A stretch of DNA of 64,000 bases from an uncultured Clostridia bacterium (lineage in GTDB: Bacteria > Bacillota > Clostridia > TANB77 > CAG-508), in assembly GCA_947626605.1 (NCBI GenBank), contig CANQSV010000005.1, positions 647 to 64,646 on the forward strand. The letters are read 5' to 3'. Every line of letters begins with the position of its first letter. Within the stretch, counting starts at the first letter, position 1. Below the pieces are notes generated by a model. It saw only the letters and a program-made list of their open reading frames with translations. It was not told where the DNA came from and did no database searches. The position numbers and the translations under genes are program-made. Shown one piece after another: positions 380-62,438 of this stretch.

Positions 380-548
380 TTAACATCTCTACTGTTTTTG
401 GTTGTTCGGGTCGTCGAGGACGCCGACCCCTACACATGTGCAATGCATTTGCATTGCAATTAATAATTGATAATTAATAATGAATAATATATAATTTTTT
501 TACATTAATTATTCATTATTCATTTTTCATCATTCAATATTCATTAAA
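380..548. repeat. Modular intergenic repeat array A-B-C-D
   Basis: A is TTAACATCTCTAC (380-392). B is cGGGTCGtcgaggacgcCGACCCCTACA (407-434). C is the TGCAATGCAtttGCATTGCA hairpin (437-460). D is an AT-rich ATTCATT-rich block (461-548). The same modules recur at 5.5, 7.0, 9.4, 10.3, 13.8 and 44.1 kb. Confidence 0.8.
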
Positions 549-556
549 CATAAAAA

Positions 557-581
557 CGGGAGACCACTGGTCTCCCCTACG
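557..581 (-). terminator. Module-B hairpin that also has the form of an intrinsic terminator for the LRR gene
   Basis: The minus strand reads GTAGGGGAGACCagtGGTCTCCCGTTTTTAT, 19 nt after the stop at 600. It has an 8-bp GC-rich stem followed by a T-run. Confidence 0.6.
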
Positions 582-599
582 TTTCATTTAAAAATCTCT

Positions 600-2456
600 C
601 TATTTTATATCTTTTAAATAATTATATTTGCGATATGCGTATATTCCATATACTGTTGCAATTATAACTATTACCATTATTCCTCTTCCCAATCCTGTTT
701 GTGGTAATATTGTTTGTGATACTGTGTTGTCTTTCTTTCCTGTTGTTTTATTCTTTGATGAACTAGATGTGCTTGGTTTATTGTTACTTGTATTTGTTTT
801 CTTATCATTATCTATACTTGCACTTTGTACTGAGCCATTGGTATTTGAGTTGTTGTTATTGCCATTGTTATTATCACTATTATTGTCATTTACATTAGAA
901 CCTGCATTGTTGTTATTATCTGTTTCATTATCTTCATCATCTGATGTTGTTGGATTAGATGGTCTTGTTAAATATACTCTTTTAATAGAATATTCTTCAC
1001 CATATTTATCAGCAACAGAATCTTTGTAGCAGTAAATTGTTAGGTCATCACTGTGATCCCTCCCAAATGCATTCCCACCAATTTTTGTAACATTATCCAA
1101 AATTGTAATTTTCTTTAAACCTATACAATCAACAAAAGAACAATCTCCTATTTCCTTTACTGAATTTGGTATTATAGCTTCAGTTATTCCTTTGCAACCT
1201 TCTAGTAAATATCGTGGTATTCTTTGAATACCTTCTTCAAACGTTACACTTGTTATATTATCACATCCTGGGAATGGGGCCCCACCTCCATCTACAGATA
1301 GACTTTTAGGAATATATAATGAAGTTAAGCCCTTGCAATTTTCAAATGCACCTCCTCCTAACAGAGTAACTCCTGTTCCAAAATTTATTTTGGTTAAACT
1401 TGTACAACCATGGAAAGCATAAGGCCCTATTTCCTTTACTGAATTTGGTATTGTAACTTCAGTTATTCCCTTGCAATTGAATAGTAAATAGCTTGGTATC
1501 CTTGGAATACCTTCTTCAAACGTTACACTTGTTATATTATCACATCCTGAGAATGTAGATGAATGTTCATATCCATCTTCAGATAGACTTTTAGGAATAT
1601 ATAATGATGTTAAGCCTTTACAATCTTCAAATGCCCAACCTCCTAACTTCGTAATTCCTGTTCCAAAATTTACTTTCTTTAAACCTGTACAACCTTTGAA
1701 TGCCCAGAATCCTATTTCCTTTACTGAATTTGGTATTGTAAGCTCTTTTAATTCTGTACAACCACTGAAAGCCTTATACCCTATTTTCTTTACTGAATTT
1801 GATATTGTAAGCTCTTTTAAACCTGTACAAGCAAGGAAAGCAGAATCCCCTATTTCCTTTACTGAATTTGGTATTATAGCTTCAGTTATTCCTTTGCAAC
1901 CTTCTAGTAGATATTTTGGTATTCTTTGAATACCTTCTTCAAACGTTACACTTGTTATATTATCACATCCTGAGAATGGATCTGAACCTCCATCTTCAGA
2001 TAGACTTTTAGGAATATATAATGAGGTTAAGCCCTTACAATTTCGAAATGCCCAATCTTCTAGCTTCGTAACTCCTGTCCCCAAATTTATTTTTGTTAAA
2101 CCTGTACAACCATAGAAAGCACTAGCCCCTATTTCCTTTACTGAATTTGGTATTGTAAGCTCTTTTAATCCTGTACAACCATAGAAAGCAGCACTCCCTA
2201 TTTTAGTTACTTTCTTTCCCTCAATTTCATTTGGTATTGTAAGTTCTCCTTTTATTGCTTTTTGATTTGTACAAACCAAATTCACTACTTCATTAGAGTC
2301 ATTTAGTTTATATGTAAAATTAATATCTTCATTTCCTACCTTCATAGTATAAGTTTTCTTATCGTTATCTGCTGCATGTACAAATGTTGGAAATAATAGC
2401 AGAATTGCTACTAAAAGAATAAAAACAAATATTGATTTTATTGACATCTTTTGCAT
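600..2456 (-). CDS. Cell-wall-anchored BspA-type leucine-rich-repeat surface protein (LPXTG sortase substrate)
   Basis: Signal peptide MQKMSIKSIFVFILLVAILLLFPTFVHA. Many repeats of the form IPNSVKEIGxxAFxGCTxL. An N/S/T-rich linker, then LPQTG, a TM segment and a basic tail. The SD-supported ATG is at 2456; the ORF-track start at 2474 lacks an SD. Confidence 0.85.
   Translation of the reverse strand: MQKMSIKSIFVFILLVAILLLFPTFVHAADNDKKTYTMKVGNEDINFTYKLNDSNEVVNLVCTNQKAIKGELTIPNEIEGKKVTKIGSAAFYGCTGLKELTIPNSVKEIGASAFYGCTGLTKINLGTGVTKLEDWAFRNCKGLTSLYIPKSLSEDGGSDPFSGCDNITSVTFEEGIQRIPKYLLEGCKGITEAIIPNSVKEIGDSAFLACTGLKELTISNSVKKIGYKAFSGCTELKELTIPNSVKEIGFWAFKGCTGLKKVNFGTGITKLGGWAFEDCKGLTSLYIPKSLSEDGYEHSSTFSGCDNITSVTFEEGIPRIPSYLLFNCKGITEVTIPNSVKEIGPYAFHGCTSLTKINFGTGVTLLGGGAFENCKGLTSLYIPKSLSVDGGGAPFPGCDNITSVTFEEGIQRIPRYLLEGCKGITEAIIPNSVKEIGDCSFVDCIGLKKITILDNVTKIGGNAFGRDHSDDLTIYCYKDSVADKYGEEYSIKRVYLTRPSNPTTSDDEDNETDNNNNAGSNVNDNNSDNNNGNNNNSNTNGSVQSASIDNDKKTNTSNNKPSTSSSSKNKTTGKKDNTVSQTILPQTGLGRGIMVIVIIATVYGIYAYRKYNYLKDIK
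1040..2230. repeat. Intragenic LRR repeats, including a roughly 190-bp segment duplicated at a 702-bp offset
   Basis: Segment 1146-1335 matches 1848-2037 at an estimated 90 percent identity by eye. The protein shows a 234-aa super-repeat (GITEAIIPNSVKEIGD... occurs twice). Confidence 0.75.
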
Positions 2457-2495
2457 TTTTTCTCCCCTTTTCATCGGTAATTTTTTTCTGAAAAT

Positions 2496-3789: not shown

Positions 3790-4605
3790 TTATAATATTT
3801 TATATTCACCCATATTTCTAAATTTTTGATATCTTTCTTCTACAATTTCTTGCGAATTTTTTTCATTCATTTCAGAAATGCATAAGGTAATTTCTTTCTT
3901 TATACTTTTAGAAACTTTTTTTATGAAATCTTCTTTCTCTTCAACTTTTGGTTCTTTAATAATTTTATCTATTACTTTGAATTCATATAAATCTTTAGCA
4001 GTTAATTTCATTTTTTCTGCAGCTTCTTTTGCTCTAGATGAATCTTTCCATAATATACTAGAAAAACCTTCTGGTGAAAGTATTGAGTATATCGCATTTT
4101 CTAACATAAATACTTTATTTCCTACACCCAATGCCAAAGCTCCACCACTTGATCCTTCTCCTATAACTACTACTATAATTGGAACTTTTAACTTTGCCAT
4201 TTCAAACATTGATTTTGCAATAGCTTCTCCTTGTCCTCTTTCCTCTGCACCTAGTCCCGGATATGCACCTTTTGTATCTACAAATGTAATTACAGGTCTT
4301 TTGAATTTTTCTGCTTGTTTCATAAATCTTATTGCTTTTCTGTAACTCTCAGGATTTGGCATTCCAAAATTTCTTTCTATATTCTCCTTAGTTGATCTAC
4401 CTTTTTGTTCTGCAATTATAGTAAAATTCTGTGTTCCTATTTTACCTAATCCACAGCAAATTGCTTTGTCATCTTTAAAAGCTCTGTCTCCATGTAACTC
4501 TATAAATTCATCAAAAATCTGCTCAATATAGTCTAATGCTGTTGGTCTTTTAGGATTTCTTGCAATTTCAACTTTTTCCCATGCTGTTATTTTTGTATTA
4601 GACAT
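3790..4605 (-). CDS. accA: Acetyl-CoA carboxylase carboxyltransferase alpha subunit
   Basis: [23 protein letters not shown] and [10 protein letters not shown] motifs. The ATG at 4605 lies 8 nt after GGAGG. It overlaps the accD stop by 8 nt. Confidence 0.9.
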
Positions 4606-5452
4606 TGCCACTTCCTCCTTTATGATATTGAATTAATTTATATAAAGTTTCTTTTAAATCTTTTCTTTCAACAATCTTATCTATAAAGCCATGTTCTAAC
4701 AAAAATTCAGCTGTTTGAAAACCTTCTGGCAAAGATTCTCCTATAGTCTGTTCTATAACTCTCTGACCTGCAAATCCAATCATAGCTCCTGGTTCTGCTA
4801 AAACAATATCTCCTAAACTTGCAAAAGAAGCTGTAACTCCTCCATAAGTTGGATCTGTTAAAACAGAAATATACAAACCTCCTGCTTCATCTAATTTTGT
4901 TAAAGCTGCTGTTGTTTTTGCCATCTGCATTAAAGATATTATTCCTTCTTGCATTCGAGCTCCACCTGATACACAAAAAATTATAAGTGGTAATTTTAAA
5001 GCTATTGCTTGTTCTATTGCATATGTAATCTTTTCGCCTACAACAACTCCCATACTTCCCATCATAAATCCACTATCCATAACACATATAACAACTTCTT
5101 CACCATTAATTTTACCAGTACCACATGCTACAGCTTCTTGTAAACCTGTTTTTTCTCTTAAAGCTTTTAATTTTTTAGGATATTCTTCTATTTCTAATGG
5201 ATTATTTGTATCTATATTTATATCAAATTTTTTATATGTATCTTCATCTAAAATCATTTTTAATCTTCTATTTATATGCATTCTGAAATAATGTCCGCAA
5301 TTTGGGCAAATACTCAAATTTTCTCTTACATCATCTTTATATACAATTTCTTTGCATTTATCACATTTTATCCATTTGCCTACTGGAATATCTATATTAG
5401 ATGTTTTATTTTTAGCAGATGGTTCACGTTTTTTTATTTTATCTACTATCAT
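4598..5452 (-). CDS. accD: Acetyl-CoA carboxylase carboxyltransferase beta subunit
   Basis: Zn ribbon CDKCKE..CPNCGHY plus the carboxyltransferase domain. The true ATG is at 5452, after GGTGAGGAAA. The 76-codon upstream extension in the ORF track reads through repeat elements. Confidence 0.9.
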
Positions 5453-5501
5453 TTTCCTCACCTTTAAGATTCTATTATTATATACCAATATTTTATATTG
5501 T

Positions 5502-5647
5502 GCGGGAGACCACTGGTCTCCCCTACGTGTGTTTATATTATTTTCTCTGTAGGGGCCGACCATTGGTCGCCCGTTTTGCCTAGTATTTTGTTGAAATAAC
5601 ATCTCTACCATTTTTGTGCTGTCGGGAGACCTCTGTTTTCCTCTACA
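5502..5647. repeat. Repeat cluster in the accC-accD spacer: B(+), B(-), A(+), decayed B(+)
   Basis: gcGGGAGACCactGGTCTCCCCTACg at 5502-5527. GTAGGGGCCGACCattGGTCGCCCg at 5549-5573. TAACATCTCTAC at 5597-5608. gtcGGGAGACCtctgttttCCTCTACA at 5621-5647. Confidence 0.8.
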
Positions 5648-6983
5648 AATTAAAATTCTTACTAATAAATGATGTATCAAAATCCCCTCTAATAAAATCT
5701 GGTGTCCTTATTATTTCAAATATAAAATCAGCATTTGTATCAACACCTTCTATTACCAATTCTTCTAGTGCTCTTTTCATTTTAGCAATAGCTTCATTTC
5801 TCGTGGTTCCATGTACAATTATTTTTGCAATCATAGAATCATATGTAAAAGGAATTGTGTAACCTTCATAAATTCCTGTATCAATTCTTATGCCATTTCC
5901 TCCTGGTAAATTAAGTCCTGTAATTTTTCCTGGGCAAGGCATAAAATTCTTTTTAGGATTTTCAGCATTTATTCTGCATTCTATTGAATGTCCCTTAAAT
6001 TCTATATCTTCTTGTTTAAATTTTAATTGTTCTCCTGCAGCAATTCTAATTTGTTCTTTTACAATATCTATTCCTGTTCTCATCTCTGTTATAGGATGCT
6101 CTACTTGAATTCTTGTATTCATTTCCATAAAGTAAAAGTTTTTATCACTATCTACTAAAAATTCAACTGTTCCACAACTTGTATAGCCAGCAATTTTCGC
6201 TGCTCTTATTGCAGCTTCTCCCATTTTATTTCTAAGATTTTCATCTACTATTGTTGATGGAGTTTCTTCTATTACCTTTTGATGTTTTCTTTGAATAGAA
6301 CAATCCCTTTCTCCAAGATGAACTATATTTCCGTGTTCATCTGCTAATATTTGAATTTCTACGTGTCTAGGATTTTTAACAAATTTTTCTATATATAATT
6401 CATCATCATTAAAAGAAATTTTTGCCTCTTGTTTTACTAAATTATAATTTTTTTCAAGTTCTTCTGGATTATTAACTATTCTTATTCCTTTTCCTCCACC
6501 ACCTGCAGCTGCTTTAATCATTAAAGGATATCCTATCTCATCTGCAATTTTTTTTGCTTCTTCTAATGTTTTTATATTTCCATCAGATCCCGGGATTACT
6601 GGTACTCCTGCTTTTTTCATCATCTTCTTTGCATTTGATTTGTTTCCCAATAATTCAATTACTTCTGATTTTGGTCCTATAAACTTGATATTTGATTCCT
6701 CACATATTTTAGCAAATTGCGTATTTTCAGATAAGAAACCAAATCCAGGATGTATACTATCACTTCCTGTTATATAAGCTGCTTCTATTATATTTTTTAT
6801 ATTCAGATAACTCTTATTTGAAGGTGCAGGACCTATGCAAATTGACTCATCTGCTAATCTGGTATGTAAAGCATCTTTATCTGCTTCTGAGTATACTGCT
6901 ACTGTTTTTATATTCATCTCTTTACATGCTCTGATAACACGAACTGCAATTTCACCACGATTTGCAATTAATATCTTATTCAT
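5643..6983 (-). CDS. accC: Biotin carboxylase subunit of acetyl-CoA carboxylase
   Basis: [15 protein letters not shown] start and ATP-grasp motifs ([18 protein letters not shown]). The ATG at 6983 follows AAAGGAA. The stop TAG at 5643-5645 lies inside the CTACA tail of a repeat. Confidence 0.9.
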
Positions 6984-7012
6984 GGCAACATTTCCTTTCT
7001 TTATTTCGTAAA

Positions 7013-7110
7013 TTAACATCTCTATATGTTTTATTGTGAACGGGTCGTCGATGCTGAGGCTGTTAAGGCTCTGCCTGCTACAGCCTCAGTATGCTGTGCT
7101 GGACGTTGTT
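7013..7110. repeat. Module A plus module E (copy 2) in the fabZ-accC spacer
   Basis: TTAACATCTCTAT at 7013-7025. CGGGTCGTCGATG then the hairpin CTGAGGCTGT-16 nt-ACAGCCTCAG (7054-7089). It shares CGGGTCG(CG)TCGATGCTGAGGCTGTTAAGGCT with 179-210. Confidence 0.8.
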
Positions 7111-7124
7111 AAAAAAACGCGCTC

Positions 7125-7547
7125 TTACACTAGTGCAAATGTTATTTCACCTTTGGCTGCTACTTTTCCATCTACAGTAGCAATAGCTTCTCCAACTCCT
7201 ATTGGACCTTTTCTTTTGATTATTTTTACTTCTAATTTTAATCTATCTCCAGGAACTACCATTTTTTTGAATTTCATTTTATCTATGCCACCAAATAAAG
7301 CATTCTTCCCCTTATTTTCTTCCATTGCAAGAATTGCTACAGCTCCTGTTTGTGCTAAACTTTCTACAATTAGAACTCCTGGCATTATAGGATTACCTGG
7401 AAAATGTCCTTGAAAATACCATTCATCTGCACTTACATTCTTATATGCTACAGCACTCTCTCCTAATACTATTTCTTCAACTTCGTCAATCATTAAAAAT
7501 GGCTCTCTCTGAGGAATAATTTCTTTTATCTGTTCTTTATTTAACAT
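7125..7547 (-). CDS. fabZ: 3-hydroxyacyl-ACP dehydratase
   Basis: [12 protein letters not shown] hot-dog active-site motif, 140 aa. Confidence 0.9.
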
Positions 7548-7634
7548 AATATTATTTTCACTCCTTTTATTAGTTAATTCGAAAAGATTAAACTTAATGA
7601 CTTCAAACTTCTACTTATTTGAATTTGTCTTTTT

Positions 7635-8099
7635 TTATTTTATTTTGAAAAGAGGTGCTCCATATTCGACAGGTTTACCATCTTCTACAAGAATTTCAAC
7701 AATTTCTCCATCAAATTCAGATTCAATCTCATTCATTAATTTCATTGCTTCAATGATACAAAGCACATCACCTTTTTTTACTTTTTTTCCTATTTCAACA
7801 TAAGCTTCTGCATCTGGTGATGACTTTCTATAAAAAGTTCCAACCATTGGAGATTTTACAACTTTGCCATCTTCAATTTCAGTATTGTGTTTTTCTTCTA
7901 CTTTTACAACACTATTTTGTATTGTTTCTTCTTTTACAGGACGTTCTTCAACAACTGCTTCTGTAATTATTGTCTTATTCTCTTTTTTCATTCTAATTTT
8001 TGTTCCATCTGGAAAATCAATGTCAAGTGCAGTTAATTTTGAGTTTCCCATATCGTCCATTAGTTTTTTTATCTTCTCGTATTCCATCTTCCTCATCAT
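7635..8099 (-). CDS. accB: Biotin carboxyl carrier protein
   Basis: C-terminal biotinyl domain with the EAMKLMNEI motif. Confidence 0.9.
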
Positions 8100-8131
8100 T
8101 CCTTTCTAAAATTTTTTAATAGATTAACATA

Positions 8132-9370
8132 TTATTTGTTAAATTTTTTTAAAATTATTGTTGCATTATGTCCGCCAAATCCTAATGAATTTGACATTAC
8201 AATATTTAAGTCAGCTTTTCTAACTTCATTTGGTACTATATCTAAATCACATTCTTCATCTTTTTCTTTATAATTTATTGTTGGAGGAACTATTTTATCT
8301 TCAATTGCTTTAACGCAAAATACTGCTTCTATAGCTCCTGCTGCTCCTAATAGATGTCCTATATTTCCTTTTGTAGAACTTACCATTACTTTTTTACTAG
8401 CATCTCCTAAAGCTTTCTTTATTGCTAATGTTTCTGTTAAATCATTTAAATGTGTTGATGTACCATGAGCATTTATATAGTCAATTTCTTCTGGCTTTAT
8501 ATTTGCATCTTGAATTGCTCTAATCATTGCTTTTGCTCCTCCATTTCCTTCTGGATCTGGAGATGTTATATGATATGCATCAGAAGTTGAACCAAATCCT
8601 ATTACCTCAGCATAAATCTTTGCTCCTCTTTTTTTCGCATGTTCTAACTCTTCTAGTACTAACATAGCTGCTCCTTCTCCCATTACAAAGCCATTTCTTT
8701 CTTTATCAAATGGAATACTTGCTCTATTTTTATCTGTTGAATTTGATAATGCTTTCATATTTTCAAAACCTGCAATACCTACTTCACAAATTGATGCTTC
8801 TGTTCCACCTGCAATAATAGCATCTTCTGAACCATACTTTATTGTTTTATATGCTTCTCCTATACTATGTGTTGAAGATGCACATGCAGTAACTATTGCT
8901 ATTGATTCTCCTTTTACTCCTAATTCAATTGCTATATTTCCAGATGGCATATTTGCGATTGACATTGGAATAAACATAGGTGAAACTCTATTATTTCCTT
9001 TTAAACAGTTTACTTCACATTGCTCTTGTAAAGTATTTAAACCACCTATTCCTGAACTTACAAAAACTCCTACTCTATCTAAATCTGTATTTTCTGATGT
9101 TATTCCACTATCTTTAAAAGCTTCTCTAGCAGCAATAATTGCTAATAAAGATGATCTGTCAGTTCTTTTTATTTGCTTTGTCTCAAAATGCTCTGAAAAA
9201 TCTATATTTTTAACTTCTGCAGCTAAACTAGTTTTAAATCCTTCTGTATCAAATAAGGTAATCTTATCAATTCCACATTTTTTATTTTTTATTCCTTCCC
9301 ATGTTTCTTCAACATTGTTACCTATTGGAGTTATAGCTCCCATTCCAGTTATAACAACTCTTCTTTCCAT
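8132..9370 (-). CDS. fabF: 3-oxoacyl-ACP synthase II
   Basis: Active-site Cys in VTACASSTHSIG, plus HGTST and GHLLGAAG motifs. 412 aa. Confidence 0.9.
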   Translation of the reverse strand: MERRVVITGMGAITPIGNNVEETWEGIKNKKCGIDKITLFDTEGFKTSLAAEVKNIDFSEHFETKQIKRTDRSSLLAIIAAREAFKDSGITSENTDLDRVGVFVSSGIGGLNTLQEQCEVNCLKGNNRVSPMFIPMSIANMPSGNIAIELGVKGESIAIVTACASSTHSIGEAYKTIKYGSEDAIIAGGTEASICEVGIAGFENMKALSNSTDKNRASIPFDKERNGFVMGEGAAMLVLEELEHAKKRGAKIYAEVIGFGSTSDAYHITSPDPEGNGGAKAMIRAIQDANIKPEEIDYINAHGTSTHLNDLTETLAIKKALGDASKKVMVSSTKGNIGHLLGAAGAIEAVFCVKAIEDKIVPPTINYKEKDEECDLDIVPNEVRKADLNIVMSNSLGFGGHNATIILKKFNK

Positions 9371-9398
9371 TTTTTATATCTTCCTTTCTAATGTTTTT

Positions 9399-9547
9399 AT
9401 AACATCTCTATTGTTGTGTGCAATGCATACGCATTGCAATGAATATTTAATAGTTAATAATGAATAATTTATAATTTAAGATAAAAAATTGCACAGCAAT
9501 TTTTTTACATTAATTATTCACTATTCATCATTCATTATTCATTAATT
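9399..9547. repeat. Modules A-C-D in the fabG-fabF spacer
   Basis: ATAACATCTCTAT at 9399-9411. Hairpin TGCAATGCAtacGCATTGCA at 9419-9438. 107-bp D block at 9441-9547, nearly identical to 10356-10462. Confidence 0.85.
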
Positions 9548-10282
9548 TTACATAAGCATTCCACCATCAACATTAACCACCTGTCCCGTTATATATGAAC
9601 TTTCATCTGAAGCTAAGAACTTAACAAGATTTGCTACATCTTCTACTTTTCCCATTCTTTTTAAAGGTATTGTTTTAGCTATATTTTCTTTTTGATCTTC
9701 TTTTAATACTTCTGTCATCTTAGTTTCTATAAAGCCTGGTGCTACTGCATTTACTAGTATATTTCTACTAGCTACTTCTTTTGCTAAGCTTTTTGTGAAT
9801 CCTATTATTCCTGCTTTGGATGCTGAATAATTAGTTTGTCCTGCATTTCCCGCTATTCCAACAACTGATGATATATTTATTATTCTTCCTTGCTTTGCTT
9901 TCATCATATAATTAATTACATTTTTAGTTACATTAAAAGTTCCAACTAAATTTGTGGTTATAACATCATTAAAATCTTCTGGCTTCATTCTCATAAGTAA
10001 TCCATCTCTTGTTATTCCTGCATTATTAACTAATACATCGATCTGTCCATATTCTTCGATTATTTCTTTTACAAATCTTTCTGCATCTTCATATTTTGAT
10101 ACGTCTCCTTGAACTGTTAGACATTTTACCCCTTTTTCTTCTATTTCTTTTTTCGCTTTTTGTAATTCTTCATTATTTCTTCTATAGTTGATTGCTATAT
10201 CAAAACCTGCTTCTGCAAGTGTTAATGCAATTTGTTTTCCGATTCCTCTAGTTGCTCCTGTTATTAATGCTGTTTTATTCAT
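9548..10282 (-). CDS. fabG: 3-oxoacyl-ACP reductase
   Basis: TGATRGIG, NNAG and YSASKAG SDR motifs. The start MNKTALITG at 10282 follows AAGAAAGGAA. The upstream ORF extension runs into a repeat hairpin. Confidence 0.9.
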   Translation of the reverse strand: MNKTALITGATRGIGKQIALTLAEAGFDIAINYRRNNEELQKAKKEIEEKGVKCLTVQGDVSKYEDAERFVKEIIEEYGQIDVLVNNAGITRDGLLMRMKPEDFNDVITTNLVGTFNVTKNVINYMMKAKQGRIINISSVVGIAGNAGQTNYSASKAGIIGFTKSLAKEVASRNILVNAVAPGFIETKMTEVLKEDQKENIAKTIPLKRMGKVEDVANLVKFLASDESSYITGQVVNVDGGMLM

Positions 10283-10303
10283 ATTTATAATCATTCCTTT
10301 CTT

Positions 10304-10462
10304 GCGGGCGACCATTGGTCGCCCCTACGTGTGTGCAATGCATTCGCATTGCAATGAATATTTAATAGTTAATAATGAATAATTTATAATTTAAGATAAA
10401 AAATTGCACAGCAATTTTTTTACATTAATTATTCACTATTCATTATTCATTATTCATTAATT
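10304..10462. repeat. Modules B-C-D in the fabD-fabG spacer, extending about 20 nt into the fabD 3' end
   Basis: gcGGGCGACCattGGTCGCCCCTACg at 10304-10329. Hairpin TGCAATGCAttcGCATTGCA at 10334-10353. D block at 10356-10462. Confidence 0.85.
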
Positions 10463-11381
10463 TAACTACTTCTTCTAATGATTTTACATCGCTAATATTT
10501 AAGTTTGTTATTTCTTTTTCTGTAGGTGTTCTTTTTACAAAGCCTGATAATGTTTTTCCTGGTCCTACTTCTATAAATGTATCTATACCATTTTCCAGCA
10601 TTGTATTTATTGTTTTTGCAAACCTCACTGGGCTTATTATGTGTTTTGCTAAAATATCTTTAACATCATCTTTTTCCGTATAAGGTTCTCCATCAATATT
10701 TTTTATAACCTTTGTATTAAATTTTCTTACATCTATTTTTTCTAATTCTTTTCTTAATGCATTTGAACTATCTGTTAACTTTTCTGTATGGAATGGTCCT
10801 GCTGTTTTTAGTACTCTAACTTTTTTTGCTCCCATTTCTTTTGCAATTATTTCAGCTTCTTCTACACCAGACTTTTCTCCTGAAATTGCAATTTGACCTA
10901 TGCAATTATAATTTGCTGGAACTACAAATCCATTTTTTACTCTTTTACAAACATCTTCTACTTGTTCTTCTGTCATTCCCATTACTGCTGCCATTAGCCA
11001 TTCTCCTGATGGTACTAACTCTTGCATATATTCTCCTCTTTTTTGTACAAGCTTTATTCCTTGTTCAAAATCAATAGCTTTACTATATATAAGAGCTGAA
11101 TATTCTCCTAAGCTTAAACCTGCTGATATTTCTGCCTCTATTTTATTTTCTTTCAAAACTTCTAATATTGCTAAACTCATTGTTAATATTGCTAATTGTG
11201 TATATTTAGTTTGATTTAACTCCTCTTCTGGTCCTTCAAAAGAAATTTTGGCTATATCTACTCCTGTTAATTCTTTTACTTTATCATACACTTTTCTAGC
11301 TGAGTCATATTCTTCATAAATATCCTTTCCCATTCCAACGCTTTGAGCTCCTTGTCCTGGAAATAAAAATCCTATTTTCAT
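10443..11381 (-). CDS. fabD: Malonyl-CoA:ACP transacylase
   Basis: FPGQGAQ and GLSLGEYSAL motifs. The ATG at 11381 lies one nt after the upstream stop codon (11383-11385). The ORF-track TTG at 11393 has no spacing from the SD. Confidence 0.9.
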   Translation of the reverse strand: MKIGFLFPGQGAQSVGMGKDIYEEYDSARKVYDKVKELTGVDIAKISFEGPEEELNQTKYTQLAILTMSLAILEVLKENKIEAEISAGLSLGEYSALIYSKAIDFEQGIKLVQKRGEYMQELVPSGEWLMAAVMGMTEEQVEDVCKRVKNGFVVPANYNCIGQIAISGEKSGVEEAEIIAKEMGAKKVRVLKTAGPFHTEKLTDSSNALRKELEKIDVRKFNTKVIKNIDGEPYTEKDDVKDILAKHIISPVRFAKTINTMLENGIDTFIEVGPGKTLSGFVKRTPTEKEITNLNISDVKSLEEVVKLMNNE

Positions 11382-11382
11382 A

Positions 11383-11958
11383 TTACTTACCAATCCTTTT
11401 TAAAAATTTTTCTTCGAAGCAATTACAAAACTCTGTAATTATCTCTCCGGCATCAATTTCTACATTAAATTCTTCTTTAATTGATGATGCTATATCTTTT
11501 ATTTCATTATTAAATTCTTTTTGGCATGTATTTATTCCTATACCTATTATTAAGAATCTTACTTCTTCTCCAATTATTTTACTTTCAGTTAATATTCCTC
11601 CAATTTTTTTATTATTAAACATTAAATCATTCGGAAATTTTATTTCCAGTTTAATATTGTATTTTTCTTTGATTATATCAACTAAAGTTTCTGCTATTTC
11701 TATTGTTATTCCTTCTATCTTCTTTATATTGCAATTAGCTTCTATATAGAAAGAAAAAGCTATATTGTTTTCCATGTCTGTATACCATTTCCTGCCATGC
11801 GTTCCTAATCCATTAGTTTGTATACCTGCCATTACTAAAGTTCCATTTGCAATATTTTTCTTAGTTAATCTCCATATCTCACTTTGAGTAGAATCGATTT
11901 TTTCATAATATAAATTATTTTTTCCTAAGAACTTAGTTTTTAGATTTTTCAATTTCAT
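11383..11958 (-). CDS. Biotin-protein ligase catalytic-domain protein (short BirA-like, no HTH)
   Basis: GLGTHGRKWYTD resembles the BirA GRGRxGRxW biotin-binding loop. It is 191 aa and embedded in the acc/fab operon. Confidence 0.6.
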   Translation of the reverse strand: MKLKNLKTKFLGKNNLYYEKIDSTQSEIWRLTKKNIANGTLVMAGIQTNGLGTHGRKWYTDMENNIAFSFYIEANCNIKKIEGITIEIAETLVDIIKEKYNIKLEIKFPNDLMFNNKKIGGILTESKIIGEEVRFLIIGIGINTCQKEFNNEIKDIASSIKEEFNVEIDAGEIITEFCNCFEEKFLKRIGK

Positions 11959-13688: not shown

Positions 13689-13734
13689 TTTATATCATAT
13701 TTTTTTTCAAAAGTCTTTAGACTGACTGGTCAGT
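13689..13734 (-). promoter_or_regulatory. Candidate fab-operon promoter (extended -10 TGaTATAAA) with an upstream 14-bp perfect palindrome ACTGACTGGTCAGT
   Basis: -10 at 13689-13694 with TG at 13696-13697. Palindrome at 13721-13734 with partly complementary flanks (TTTAG / TTTAAAG). No good -35. Confidence 0.3.
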
Positions 13735-13751
13735 TTTAAAGTAAAAAAAGA

Positions 13752-13843
13752 AATGGTAGAGATGTTTCTTTTTTAATTGTATTTTTTATTAACATCTCTA
13801 CCATTATTATGTTATGCGGGTCGTCGGGACGCCGACCCCTACA
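13752..13843. repeat. Repeat modules A(-), A(+), B(+)
   Basis: AATGGTAGAGATGTT at 13752-13766 pairs with AACATCTCTACCATT at 13791-13805. gcGGGTCGtcgggacgcCGACCCCTACA at 13816-13843. Confidence 0.8.
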
Positions 13844-43994: not shown

Positions 43995-44060
43995 ATTTCT
44001 AACCTCTTTTTTATTATATTTAATATATTAGAAATAATCAAGGAAAAAATCAATACCAAT

Positions 44061-44199
44061 GTAGGGGTCGGCGTCCTCGACGACCCGCAAAGAATAAAAC
44101 TTATAGAGATGTTAATCTATAATAATTATAAAATAGTACAAAATTAACATCTCTACAAGTTCCACAAATCACGGGTCGTCGAGGACGCCGACCCCTACA
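44061..44199. repeat. 139-bp REPIN/MITE-like palindromic doublet: B(-) A(-) ... A(+) B(+)
   Basis: GTAGGGGTCGGCGTCCTCGACGACCCGc at 44061-44088. TATAGAGATGTTAAT at 44102-44116. AATTAACATCTCTACA at 44142-44157. cGGGTCGTCGAGGACGCCGACCCCTACA at 44172-44199. Confidence 0.85.
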
Positions 44200-51283: not shown

Positions 51284-54200
51284 TTATTCTGTTTGTTCAC
51301 CATGTCCTTTTTTCCCCTTTTCTTGAACTATCTCTTCTAATTCGTTTCTTACTTCTTCATTGCTCTCTACTCTATTTCCAACCGCTTCTTTCATTCTCCT
51401 CTTAATTTTCTCATCTTTACTCTTACCTAATTGTCCTAAATCTCTTAAAGTTCTTATCTTTTCTCTCCATTCTTCTGGAACTTCTTCTATTGGTACTCCT
51501 ACATATCTATCTAACATTTCATGTTCTTCTGTTCTTCGCCATCTTGCGTATAGATTTTTTTCCGTAAGTTCTTCTTCTGTCATCTCTTCTTTTTTTAATA
51601 TCTTTCCTTTTTGTCTTATCTCACTTCTTGGCATTCTTCCTTCATGATTTTCTAGCCATTCTATTACTTCTTCATATGTTGTCTTTTCTTTCATTCCTAG
51701 CCCATAACTTCTTAAAACTTCAATCTTTTTCTTCATTTCTTCTGATTCTGTGATTTCTTCTATCTTTACTCCTACATATTTTTCTAACTTTTTACGTTCT
51801 TTTGACTTTGACCATCTTGCATATAGATTTTTTTCCGCAAGTTCTTTTTCTGTCATATTTTCTTTTGTTAGTTGCTTTCCGTTTTGTACTATAGTACCTC
51901 TTGGCATTCTTCCTTCATGACTTTCTAACCACTCTATTATATCTTCATATGTTGTCTTTTCTTTCATTCCTAATCCATAACTTCTTAAAGTTTTAATTTT
52001 TTCTTTTATTTTTTCTGACTCTGGTATTGCTTCTATTGGTACTCCTATATACTTTTTCAAAATTTTATCTTCTTCAGAACGCCCCCATCTTCTATATAAT
52101 TTTATTTCATAATTCTCTTCTTCTGTCATTTCATCTTTTTCTAATTTCTTTCCTTTTTTTCTTATCTCACTTCTTGGCATTCTTCCTTCATGACTTTCTA
52201 ACCATTCTATTATTCCTTCATATAATGTTTTTTTATTTTTTATTAAGTTTCTTAAAGTACTTATTCTACCTTTCCAATCTTCCGACTCTGGTATTTCTTC
52301 TATCTTTACTCCTACATACTTTGCTAACATTTTCGATTCTTTTGACTTTTTCCATCTTGCATATAAATTTTTTTCATAAAGCTCTTCTTCTGTCATTTCT
52401 TCTCTTTTTAATGTCTTTTCTTCTTTCTTTATAGTACCTCTTGGCATTCTTCCTTCATGATTTTCTAGCCATTCTATCATTTCTTCATATGTTGTTCTTG
52501 CTTTCATTCCTAGTCCATAACTTCTTAAAGTTTTAATCTTTTCCTTCATTTCTTCTGATTCTGGTATTTCTTCTATTCTCACTCCTACATATTCTTCTAA
52601 CAATTTATGTTCCTTTGACGTTATCCATCTTGCATATAATTTTATTTCATAAAGCTCCTCTTCTGTCATCTTTTCTCTTTTTAATGTCTTTTCTTCTTTC
52701 TTTATAGTACATCTTGGCATTTTTCCTTCATGATTTTCTAGCCATTCTATTATTTCTTCATATGGTGTTCTTGCTTTCATTCCTAGTCCATAATTTCTTA
52801 AAGCTTTAATCTTTTCCTTCATTTCTTCTGATTCTGGTATTTCTTCTATTTTTATTCCTAAATATCTATTTAACAATCTATGCTCTTCTGCAATTTTCCA
52901 TCTTCCATATAAATTCACTTCATAACGTTCTGCTTCTGTAAGTTCTTCTTTTTTTAACATCTTGCCTTTTCGACTTATAGCACCTCTTGGCATTTTTCCT
53001 TCATGATTTTCTAGCCATTCTATTATTTCTTCATATGGTGTTTTTTCTTTCATTCCTAGTCCATAACTTCTTAAAGTTTTAATTTTCGCCTTCATTTCTT
53101 CCGATTCTGATATTTCTTCTATGCTTACTCCTACATATGTTTCTAATATTCTACAATCTGCTGAAAATCTCCATCTTCCATATAAATTTTTTTCATACTG
53201 CTCTTCTTCTGTCATCTCTTCTCTTTTTAGTGTCTTTCCTTTTTTCTTTATAGTACCTCTTGGCATTCTTCCTTCATGTTCTTCTAGCCATTCTATTATT
53301 TCTTCATAAATATCTTTTCTTGTTTGAATATTGTATTTTAATTCTTCATTTATTTCTCTCATTATTTCTAATAAGTCTGTTTCATCAAATGATAGATTTG
53401 TAAAACTAAATTCTCCTTTTTTATATTCTCCTCCTCTATTGATTGCTCCTGCAATTTCTCTATATGTTTCTATTTGTCTCATCCAATTATTTACTACATC
53501 TATTATAACTGTTTCTCTATCTGTAGTCATTACTCTTCCTAGTCTTTGTTTATATCTAATTGCTGATGATGTTTCTGCAAACATGATTTCTCCATCTATA
53601 TTCTCTACATGTGTTCCTTCATCCAACATTTCTACACAAAATAATAATTGTAACTGTTCTCCTTCTGGTGTCTCTTCAAAATGTCTTATTACTCTATCAT
53701 TATCTTTTTGGGATTTTCCAAATTTGTCTTTACTATCATTTTTACTTAATATATATTTCACACTAATATTGGAATTTACTTTTCCAAATATCTCGCTTGC
53801 CTTTTCCATTTTTTCTCTTAGGTCTTCTCTATCTTTACAAAATACTATGTATTTACCATTTTTCTTTTTTATTCCTTGTTCCATCATATCTGGTATTTCT
53901 GGTACTCTACTTACAATGTTGTGTAATTTTTTATATTTTTCTAGTAACATATTCCTTTTTTCTTCATCTTCAACTTTGTTTATTTTTTCTAAATACTCTT
54001 CTAATTCTATCTTTAATTCTGAAATTACTCTTACATATCTTGGGGCTTGTAAAACTACTTCTCCTTCTTTTTCTCCACTAAGTGCTTCTGTTAAACTCAT
54101 TACATATACTATTGCATCTTCAAATTTCTCCGTTGCCATATTTCTTCTATCTGTTCTTTCTGGAGTTGCTGTCATACCTATTATTTCCGTTTCTGGCAAA

Positions 54201-62124: not shown

Positions 62125-62317
62125 TAAAAAATCCCCCCTATATTTCATTCAAAAAATATTTTAACATTATGGGAAAAATTTTTCAACAAAAATCGCTTAC
62201 TATAAAACTTATATATACTTTATTAGCAACCTATGGTGTAATTATATTGGGAAATGATTTTTGTAAATCTTCATCTGTTGGAATATAGTCTGTCATAGTT
62301 TTATCTCTAACTAAAAT

Positions 62318-62438
62318 TTTATACGTTAAATTTTTAAATTTTTTTGACTCTAAATAATTTATAGGTCAAATTTCTTGATTTTTTTGACTCTAAATAATTT
62401 ATAGGTCAAATTTTTTAATTTTTTTGACCTATAAATTT
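62318..62438. repeat. Tandem 40-bp repeats (about 3 units) ending in a perfect 15-bp inverted repeat
   Basis: Units start at 62341, 62381 and 62421 (TTTTTGACTCTAAATAATTTATAGGTCAAATTTCTTGATT). AATTTATAGGTCAAA at 62396-62410 pairs with TTTGACCTATAAATT at 62423-62437. Confidence 0.8.

Follow-up and report, generated by a model that had tools for sequence, protein, structure and literature searches.

The window examined here, a stretch of 64,000 nucleotides (64 kb) taken at its full length, has a GC content of 23-32% and originates from an uncultured Clostridia bacterium that forms spores (Spo0A is encoded), and almost all genes of the window are located on the minus strand. Its spacers contain repetitive extragenic palindromes (REPs), short GC-rich hairpins preceded by GTAG. 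All REPs of the window were intergenic and were distributed over seven spacers. Six of the eight intact copies were positioned within the first 14 kb, and the remaining two formed an inverted doublet beside spo0A. Four REPs were found in or beside the spacers of the fatty-acid synthesis operon (fabD / fabG / fabF accB fabZ / accC / accD accA fabI acpP), and two were immediately downstream of the gene for a leucine-rich-repeat (LRR) protein that adjoins this fab/acc operon. A first-pass annotation of the same DNA had designated the hairpin module B, had described the modules A, C, and D as travelling with it, and had compared the layout to that of REPs mobilized by REP-associated tyrosine transposases (RAYTs).

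The pattern GTAGGGG-N10-24-CCCG had eight exact matches in the window compared to 0.01 expected from dinucleotide-preserving shuffles. All eight intact REPs possessed the GTAG, followed by a GC-rich hairpin that opened with GGG and closed with CCC, and each was predicted to fold into a hairpin as single-stranded DNA with the GTAG unpaired at the 5′ foot (z = −2.2 to −3.9). A short form was composed of an 8-bp stem and a 3-nt loop, with the stem GGGAGACC or GGGCGACC, and a longer form (type 3) read GGGTCG-G-CG-tcct-CG-A-CGACCC. A long-loop variant of the type 3 REP contained a 49-nt inner hairpin; its copies in the window were truncated, two within 176-335 and one within 7008-7105, and the copy in a sister strain was intact. 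These three truncated copies had been missed in the first-pass annotation. The nine copies of module B that it listed were all located, eight as exact matches and the ninth, at 5621-5647, in a decayed form. An unbiased scan of the window for GTAG or GTGG followed by any GC-rich hairpin did not reveal a further REP class, a comparison of the window with Rfam at gathering thresholds was without a match, and neither tRNA nor tmRNA genes were detected by ARAGORN.

Related loci, designated by L numbers, were seen as 8-kb pieces of metagenome-assembled genomes (MAGs), and the counts cover those pieces. The window and the related loci together yielded 84 hairpins with more than 45 sequence variants. 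In an alignment of 15 distinct short-type hairpins from both sources, for which the search pattern fixed the three outer pairs only, 99.2% of the cells were occupied by a standard pair, compared to 36-51% when the 3′ partner columns were slid by 1 to 3 positions. Four of the five unconstrained stem pairs had changed on both sides, with 16 double-sided changes across these four pairs. The stem of the REP hairpin is maintained by compensatory substitutions. The three stem versions reported previously, with an A-T to C-G compensatory change between two of them, were real, and the covariation held in the larger alignment. G-U pairs occupied 1 of 120 cells, a rarity that would fit, if weakly, a constraint on DNA as much as one on RNA. 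GT(A/G)G was present at the 5′ foot of the hairpin in 8 of 8 intact window copies and in 84 copies at the loci, and the palindromes were imperfect, in the range of 20-40 nt expected of REPs, and conserved in their stems as structures. REPs in the window occurred alone, as inverted pairs, or linked to modules A, C, and D. Pairs and mosaics as in bacterial interspersed mosaic elements (BIMEs) or REPINs, that is, REP doublets forming hairpins, were represented by the pairs 5503/5549 and 44061/44172, in L037 by a tandem mosaic of about 120 nt, and by D-C-REP-A composites.

The core of module A, TAGAGATGTTA, was present in seven exact copies in the window and in 14 copies with one mismatch at most, versus 3.0 expected. 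Modules A and B are joined in a single unit, GTAG-hairpin-N14-20-(G/A)TAGAGATGTTAA, with four copies in the window versus none in shuffles. Rather than being an independent GTAG element, module A constitutes the inner portion of the inverted repeat of a REPtron, the unit of a RAYT gene and its flanking REPs. The existence and sequence of module A had been described correctly; its standing as a separate element with a GTAG of its own did not hold, and the joint A+B unit had been overlooked, as had the A-C-D block at 9399-9551. Module A might hold a second contact or cleavage site, or serve otherwise. A role as an outward promoter (TGnTAxxxT) was not supported: a sigma-70 consensus scan flagged no copy of A, and promoter-like sites in the window overall were no more common than in shuffles. 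The hairpin of module C with its loops ttt, tac, and ttc, module D, and the order A-B-C-D-B at 380-581 were as previously described. Modules C and D, the long-loop form, and a 146-nt palindrome at 2555-2700 are separate dispersed repeats of the window's species, which accumulate in the REP spacers and result in a BIME-like mosaic. Copies of module C were also found in L006, L022, L029, and L037 and copies of module D in L006, L009, L014, L022, and L029. The palindrome at 2555-2700 is positioned downstream of acpP and was predicted to fold as RNA with −38.5 kcal/mol (z −8.2); it has a bidirectional terminator-like core at 2616-2647 and copies in L022 (two), L029 (two), L027, L035, and L038. The sites in the window are listed in Table 1.

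Table 1. REPs and associated modules in the 64-kb window, with the counterparts in L037 where these differ
Feature	Position	Strand	Remarks
Composite element: two truncated long-loop REPs in head-to-head orientation	176-335 (176-235; 243-300)	minus; plus	Repeat matching and fold; degenerate module A at 311-321; one long hairpin (dG −39, z −6.9); resembles 7008-7105 and copies in L022 and L037
Module A (GTAGAGATGTTAA)	380-392	minus	14 nt 3′ of REP 407-433
REP, long-stem type 3 (GTAG GGGTCG G CG tcct CG A CGACCC G)	407-433	minus	Pattern and fold; identical to the REPs upstream of and within the RAYT gene of L045
Module C hairpin (TGCAATGCA-ttt-TGCATTGCA)	439-458		CACAYG linker to REP
Module D, AT-rich imperfect palindrome	463-556		Families D5/D12/D16; co-occurs with REP
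REP, short type 1 (GTAG GGGAGACC agt GGTCTCCC G)	557-580	minus	dG −9, z −3.9; 20 nt past the stop of the LRR-protein gene 600-2474 (minus); sole copy with a T-run, terminator-like
REP type 1	5503-5526	minus	accC-accD spacer; half of an inverted pair
REP type 2 variant (GGGGCCGACC...GGTCGCCC)	5549-5573	plus	Inverted partner of 5503-5526
Module A	5596-5608	minus	
Decayed REP (GTAGAGGAAAACAGAGGTCTCCCG)	5621-5647	minus	accC-accD spacer; fails to fold; L037: orthologue intact, plus an extra tandem mosaic unit of ~120 nt
Module A (7013-7025) and 5′-truncated long-loop REP	7008-7105	minus	fabZ-accC spacer; L037: intact, GTAGGGGTCGGCGTCC (49-nt inner hairpin) CGACGAACCG, folds (z −5.0)
A-C-D block without REP	9399-9551	minus	fabG-fabF spacer; L037: REP (GTAGGGGCGATTAGCAATCGCCCG) between C and A
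REP type 2 (GGGCGACC/GGTCGCCC)	10305-10328	minus	fabG start codon 22 nt downstream
Module C (10334-10353) and module D (10355-10466)	10334-10466		fabD-fabG spacer; D copy 10355-10465 folds (z −4.4); L037: another REP instead of D
REP type 3, loop 1 nt shorter (13817-13842), and module A (13789-13801)	13789-13842	minus	
Inverted doublet: REP 44061-44087, A 44103-44115; A 44144-44156, REP 44172-44198	44060-44199	plus; minus	REP-A ... A-REP

A scan for the B+A unit with one genome per species gave 37 loci, 35 of which were located in six MAGs labelled as Clostridia or Clostridiales. These MAGs came from the gut of rabbits, the omasum of roe deer, and, for UBA11489, an unspecified source. The 35 further loci in related genomes support the proposed dispersal of the family. 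The two matches outside this clade (Aquimarina and Chloroflexi) compare to about 20 chance matches expected in 596 Gb by information content. One of the loci, L037 (Lapin-001__bin36), was 96-99% identical to positions 3799-11550 of the window, and four of the four orthologous fab/acc spacers differed between the two strains by whole modules (Table 1), which is the presence/absence polymorphism that the first-pass annotation had suggested looking for. This shows a rapid turnover of modules; transposition is not proven by the spacer differences alone. Module D (10443-10466) encodes the final six codons of fabD and its stop codon, and the protein ends with EEVVKLMNNE in the window versus EEVVNFIKD in L037. 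Since module D supplies the end of fabD in the window only, repeat turnover rewrites the C terminus of FabD. Short-read metagenome contigs of the window's species (L001, L002, and L060-L063) ended at or beside these repeats, with ends 118 nt upstream of fabG and just past spo0A. The REP family thus fragments assemblies, which means that copy numbers from MAGs are underestimated.

In related MAGs, a gene for a HUH-Y1 protein of 160-170 aa was bracketed by inverted copies of the REP type found in the window. The arrangement was REP and A, RAYT gene, A and REP in L040, L041, and L048; REP, RAYT gene, REP in L049; and one REP upstream of the RAYT gene plus one inside it in L045 and L052. Module A accompanied the REP at four of six RAYT loci, and all copies of the RAYT gene fetched from this clade had an adjoining REP. 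L045 and L052 had the gene next to spo0A, L041 and L049 had it at other sites, and the sister species Lapin-013__bin23 had multiple, decayed copies, with inverted REP+A pairs that enclosed 350-580 nt coding for fragments of a small protein. In the window itself, a tblastn search of the 64 kb found no transposase gene, as had been stated in the first-pass annotation; the Y1 transposase open reading frame (ORF) between inverted copies that it had suggested looking for was present in the related genomes and not in the window. When six-frame translations were searched for RAYT motifs by regular expression, nothing was found because the pattern was too strict, and the gene was later recognized by eye in L031 and L026.

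The sole NCBIfam match of five intact homologues was REP_Tyr_transpos, “REP-associated tyrosine transposase” (NF047646), with E = 4e-17 to 2e-18, and it was also the sole match of the protein reconstructed from L026 (E = 1.1e-17). In the PDB, the E. coli TnpA-REP structure 4ER8 was the only match (E = 4e-6 when a single sequence was compared, 8e-10 for a profile). H86, H88, Y150, and N154, which represent the H-x-H motif, the tyrosine, and the Asn at +4, were invariant among 29 homologues and aligned with 4ER8. The residues of E. coli TnpA-REP that contact the GTAG are W94, Q95, E100, H101, and R104 (PMC6006769), and in this stretch IWQRNYYEHIIRN of the homologues aligned to IWQPRFWEHAIRN of 4ER8 with identical spacing. 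Within the corresponding WQ..EH..R motif, the Q and the R equivalent to R104 were invariant, the H was nearly so, and the W was replaced by F in a few members. The flanked RAYT genes and the matches to NF047646 and 4ER8 support the previous assignment of the layout to the RAYT-mobilized type. The protein database contained 5538 relatives at E ≤ 1e-5, several of them labelled merely “MAG: transposase [Clostridia bacterium].” The RAYT proteins of the related loci had no C-terminal extension. An in-frame REP in the RAYT gene of L045 (4273-4299) encodes NGSSRTPTPTN between the HUH motif and the tyrosine, a motif present in many homologues, and the VGVGVLDDP-type peptides at the N terminus of some homologues are the REP in the other reading orientation. 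Two in-frame REPs were also observed in the C-terminal part of dnaE (Pol III alpha) in L041 (GCA_017619435.1, 3011-3037 and 3068-3094), encoding VGVGALGDP and VGADSHIDP; this echoes a published observation that intragenic REPs favor replication and repair genes.

In L045 (GCA_017397545.1) and L052 (GCA_036312185.1), the RAYT gene was positioned between spo0A and a gene for a membrane protein of 490-498 aa. The Spo0A and membrane proteins of L045 were 71% and 45% identical to Spo0A and the 493-aa protein of the window, respectively, and the REP at this locus matched the type 3 REP of the window base for base. At the syntenic position, the window contains only the doublet REP-A ... A-REP (44060-44199), with 26-28 nt between the A copies. 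The doublet was predicted to fold as a single, REPIN-like hairpin with −53.8 kcal/mol (z −17). Two other assemblies with an identical Spo0A span this spacer; both have the same distance to the gene for the 493-aa protein, and no RAYT gene was called in between. Shorter contigs of the window's species end inside or before the spacer. As judged from synteny and sequence, the site 44060-44199 is the RAYT-less remnant of a REPtron. Because only the doublet is left at the syntenic position and no RAYT gene was called there in the spanning assemblies, the RAYT gene has been lost from its ancestral site in the window's species. Here the REPs may be fossils in decay, or a RAYT encoded elsewhere in the genome may service them.

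These data assign the hairpins with high confidence to the REPs of a RAYT system, and it is very probable that the GTAG-tagged REPs in BIME-like mosaics represent a REP-RAYT system common to a clade of very AT-rich uncultured gut Clostridia. How the RAYT may act on them can be proposed with moderate confidence from the biochemistry of TnpA-REP (RAYT) and of IS608/IS200/IS605. The RAYT would bind to the hairpin of the REP in single-stranded DNA, probably that of the lagging-strand template, which would here correspond to the coding-strand sequence, with the 5′ GTAG serving as recognition or guide tetranucleotide. Cleavage and rejoining beside the hairpin would lead to REP units or doublets being excised, copied, and shuffled among spacers. 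REPs transcribed within the fab/acc operon probably double as barriers at mRNA 3′ ends, one copy being terminator-like.

Between co-directional genes, the GTAG was on the coding strand in 35 cases and on the opposite strand in 7, an orientation in favor of the assignment to a REP-RAYT system. Several points weigh against this assignment. The sense bias fits the use of the lagging-strand template and selection on transcribed hairpins equally well and, with nearly all genes on one strand, cannot separate replication from transcription. No RAYT was present in the window, and none was called at the spo0A spacer in the spanning assemblies of the window's species. A direct transposition event was not seen, and repeats that recombine, are deleted, or undergo gene conversion with one another could also account for the spacer differences. 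Copies in the window were clustered, with six of eight in the first 14 kb, and all data came from MAGs, the assemblies of which are broken by repeats. The scores of 62-67 bits with NF047646 were below the cut-off of 80 of this equivalog model, and that with PF01797 (Y1_Tnp) was 22.9, with a cut-off of 23. With NF047646 nevertheless being the sole family match, the protein looks like a member of a divergent RAYT subclass.

Instead of being REPs of a RAYT system, the hairpins could primarily be transcription or RNA elements of the host (terminators, attenuators, or mRNA-stabilizing 3′ hairpins) that resemble each other by functional selection. The sense orientation of the majority of the copies between co-directional genes would agree with this, as would the position of 557-580 just past a stop codon and in front of a T-run, and E. 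coli REPs are known to stabilize upstream mRNA (PMC6006769). When the class of intrinsic terminators was considered, however, only 557-580 qualified: the T-run was present in just one of the eight copies, and the others lacked it and were operon-internal, several of them directly upstream of ribosome-binding sites within the fab/acc operon. An invariant unpaired GTAG and a GGG/CCC foot are not terminator traits, no Rfam family was matched, and an identical sequence flanks and sits within the RAYT gene of other genomes. Such a primary RNA function has little probability; an RNA role as a secondary, exapted function would be compatible with a REP-RAYT system. Still less can be said for the hairpins being remnants of the ends of IS200/IS605 insertion sequences (ISs), IStrons, or group II introns rather than REPs, which is the least probable of the alternatives. 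The ends of IS200/IS605 elements are indeed subterminal hairpins read by a Y1 enzyme, and this family is common in Clostridia (PMC6006769), but the associated protein fits the RAYT model and TnpA-REP and not an IS200 transposase, tblastn and Rfam found neither a tnpB gene nor an intron RNA in the window, the GTAG with a GGG foot is the REP signature, and the copies are much shorter than IS ends with cargo.

The RAYT unit of Lapin-013__bin23 bears on a further alternative, in which the repeats are miniature inverted-repeat transposable elements (MITEs), derived from and moved by a DDE insertion sequence with terminal inverted repeats (TIRs) and target site duplications (TSDs), the RAYT being a passenger. 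The unit was found at no fewer than nine loci of this MAG, including L019, L020, L026, L031, L039, L023, L017, and L030, with two frameshifts in L026 and no intact copy among those seen. Its borders are formed by TIRs of about 95 nt with GTTACCAGTCAGAC at the start, 8-bp direct repeats were present at four of the eight two-ended copies (null rate 0.0056), and one derivative with an internal deletion, its junction in an ATATAT microhomology, was shared by four different sites. A precedent would be the multi-copy RAYTs of Neisseria meningitidis, for which mobilization in trans by IS1106 has been proposed (bioRxiv 10.1101/2021.07.10.451892). The copies of the window, on the other hand, were devoid of an outer TIR and of flanking direct repeats, the inverted repeat stopped exactly at the GTAG in the window, L048, and L049, the sampled loci did not yield a DDE transposase, and a DDE enzyme could not use solo REPs as substrates, given their length of only 24-27 nt. 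As an account of the whole family, MITEs are thus very improbable, a little below a primary RNA function and above IS200/IS605 ends.

Y1 enzymes do not produce target duplications, and 8-bp repeats would be unexpected of Y1 transposition. The likeliest explanation for the Lapin-013__bin23 unit is that an unseen DDE element mobilizes it in trans, which is also the proposal for Neisseria; RAYT itself driving a transposition with TIRs and TSDs is unlikely, and less probable than this. In the search for a helper, metagenomes scanned for the outer TIR contained just two matches, both attributable to chance, and among the ORFs of the Lapin-013 loci only paralogues with an FGE-sulfatase domain, which are not transposases, were multi-copy. 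With the whole REPtron being multi-copy and accompanied by TSDs and copied deletion derivatives in Lapin-013__bin23, the REP-RAYT system of the clade may be in an IS-like state, a possibility that is doubtful as a description of the clade. If true, a series leading from an autonomous element to REPIN-like doublets and on to solo REPs would be visible, and the general statement would be contradicted that REPtrons, as is said, do not move as units. At 13715-13770 of the window, close to REP 13817-13842, there is an inverted A-like motif, GGTAGAGATGTTT (13756-13768), with AGACTGACTGGTCAG just before it; the latter weakly resembles the outer TIR of Lapin-013 and may be the relic of a larger element.

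In its behavior, the REP-RAYT system of the Clostridia resembles REP/BIME with TnpA-REP in E. coli and REPIN-RAYT in Pseudomonas. The Clostridia and E. coli systems both have an unpaired 5′ GTAG followed by an imperfect GC-rich palindrome, are extragenic and often operon-internal, exhibit several REP subtypes per genome as well as inverted pairs and mosaic clusters with linker motifs, and are associated with an HUH-Y1 enzyme (TnpA-REP or RayT, 4ER8) that is flanked by REPs and in which H-x-H, Tyr, Asn(+4), and WQ..EH..R align. In contrast to E. coli, the Clostridia hosts have a GC content of 25-30%, so that the REPs are GC islands; the foot of the hairpin is GGG/CCC; the protein is only distantly similar in sequence to TnpA-REP and has no C-terminal extension; and the BIME linkers show no relationship to modules A, C, and D. 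Long canonical REPs with three G-C pairs at the bottom of the stem, an in-frame REP in the gene, the missing C-terminal extension, and a patchy distribution across phyla are shared with RAYT subclass 2.4, which is group 4 of Bertels et al. (2017). In the passages of Quentin (2018; PMC6006769) that deal with this subclass, in-frame REPs, the GGG/CCC stem foot, and the absence of a C-terminal extension are given as its traits, and it is described as abundant in Cyanobacteria and Bacteroidetes and also present in Chlorobia and Caldilineae, Clostridia being unmentioned there. By their features, the Clostridia RAYTs would belong to subclass 2.4, an assignment made by shared features and not by phylogeny.

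The REPIN-RAYT systems of Pseudomonas also have inverted doublets that form one long hairpin, as at 44060-44199, and, comparable to the two loci next to spo0A, a RAYT at a conserved extragenic position; unlike these REPINs, the Clostridia copies are mostly singlets or parts of mosaics, and the doublet of the window is the former RAYT locus itself. Loss of the RAYT with retention of decaying REPINs is known from RAYT-less E. coli strains (bioRxiv 10.1101/2021.07.10.451892). In Pseudomonas putida and P. fluorescens, REPs fused to unrelated sequences give long inverted repeats around the RAYT, and the IS1106-linked RAYTs of N. meningitidis are multiple, frameshifted copies that were probably moved in trans (bioRxiv 10.1101/2021.07.10.451892). 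Lapin-013__bin23 differs from these cases by its 8-bp target duplications and copied deletion derivatives, and no helper was found. The likely mechanism, a Y1 enzyme acting on a single-stranded hairpin with a 5′ guide tetranucleotide and a bias for the lagging-strand template, is shared with IS200/IS605 (IS608, ISDra2); an autonomous IS structure and tnpB are missing, in contrast to these elements, and the sequence signature is that of a monomer-type RAYT.

GTAG REPs have been listed only for Proteobacteria, Cyanobacteria, Chloroflexi, and the Planctomycetes-Verrucomicrobia-Chlamydiae (PVC) group (Di Nocera 2013, PMC3733652). Clostridia have been mentioned only for group 1 RAYTs (Bertels 2017, PMC5581495), and these are subclass 2.1, for which no REP-like sequences were found (Quentin 2018, PMC6006769). 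The earlier statement that such a family is undescribed in Clostridia is consistent with these three sources; the novelty lies in the host group and not in the kind of system, REP/BIME-RAYT, which was already known. A known kind of REP-RAYT system is thus present in a bacterial group without an earlier description, and the range of GTAG-REP/RAYT is extended to the endospore-forming Clostridia, Firmicutes being absent from the host lists given in the REP surveys. Because the host genomes have a GC content of only 25-30%, the boundaries of the elements can be drawn with unusual ease. Three states are found in the clade, with the RAYT in place, with the flanking doublet alone as in the window's species, or with the RAYT unit multiplied and decayed; having them side by side provides a natural series for how REP populations arise, persist, and die. 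In practical terms, the REPs break metagenome assemblies, alter gene ends such as the C terminus of FabD, and sit within a core operon, and the RAYTs of the clade are annotated as “transposase” only or not at all.

Other repeats were observed in the window. Positions 1-156 and 2401-2556 are duplicates with 98% identity that comprise a 5′ end and a perfect TTGACA-16-TATAAT promoter; they belong to tandem genes for BspA-type LRR surface proteins, and the REP-rich spacer 157-599 separates these paralogues. Three tandem AT-rich repeats of 40 nt (AAAATTTTATACGTTAAATTTTTAAATTTTTTTGACTCTA) at 62313-62432 are located in the spacer between a gene for a TRAM/U5 RNA methyltransferase and a gene for a periplasmic-binding protein and had no copies among the fetched loci. 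Seven tandem repeats of 273 nt (91 aa) at 51474-53405 are part of an ORF of 1107 aa with a ResIII/DEAD-type helicase N terminus, and the repeat region gave weak helix-turn-helix-like Pfam matches.

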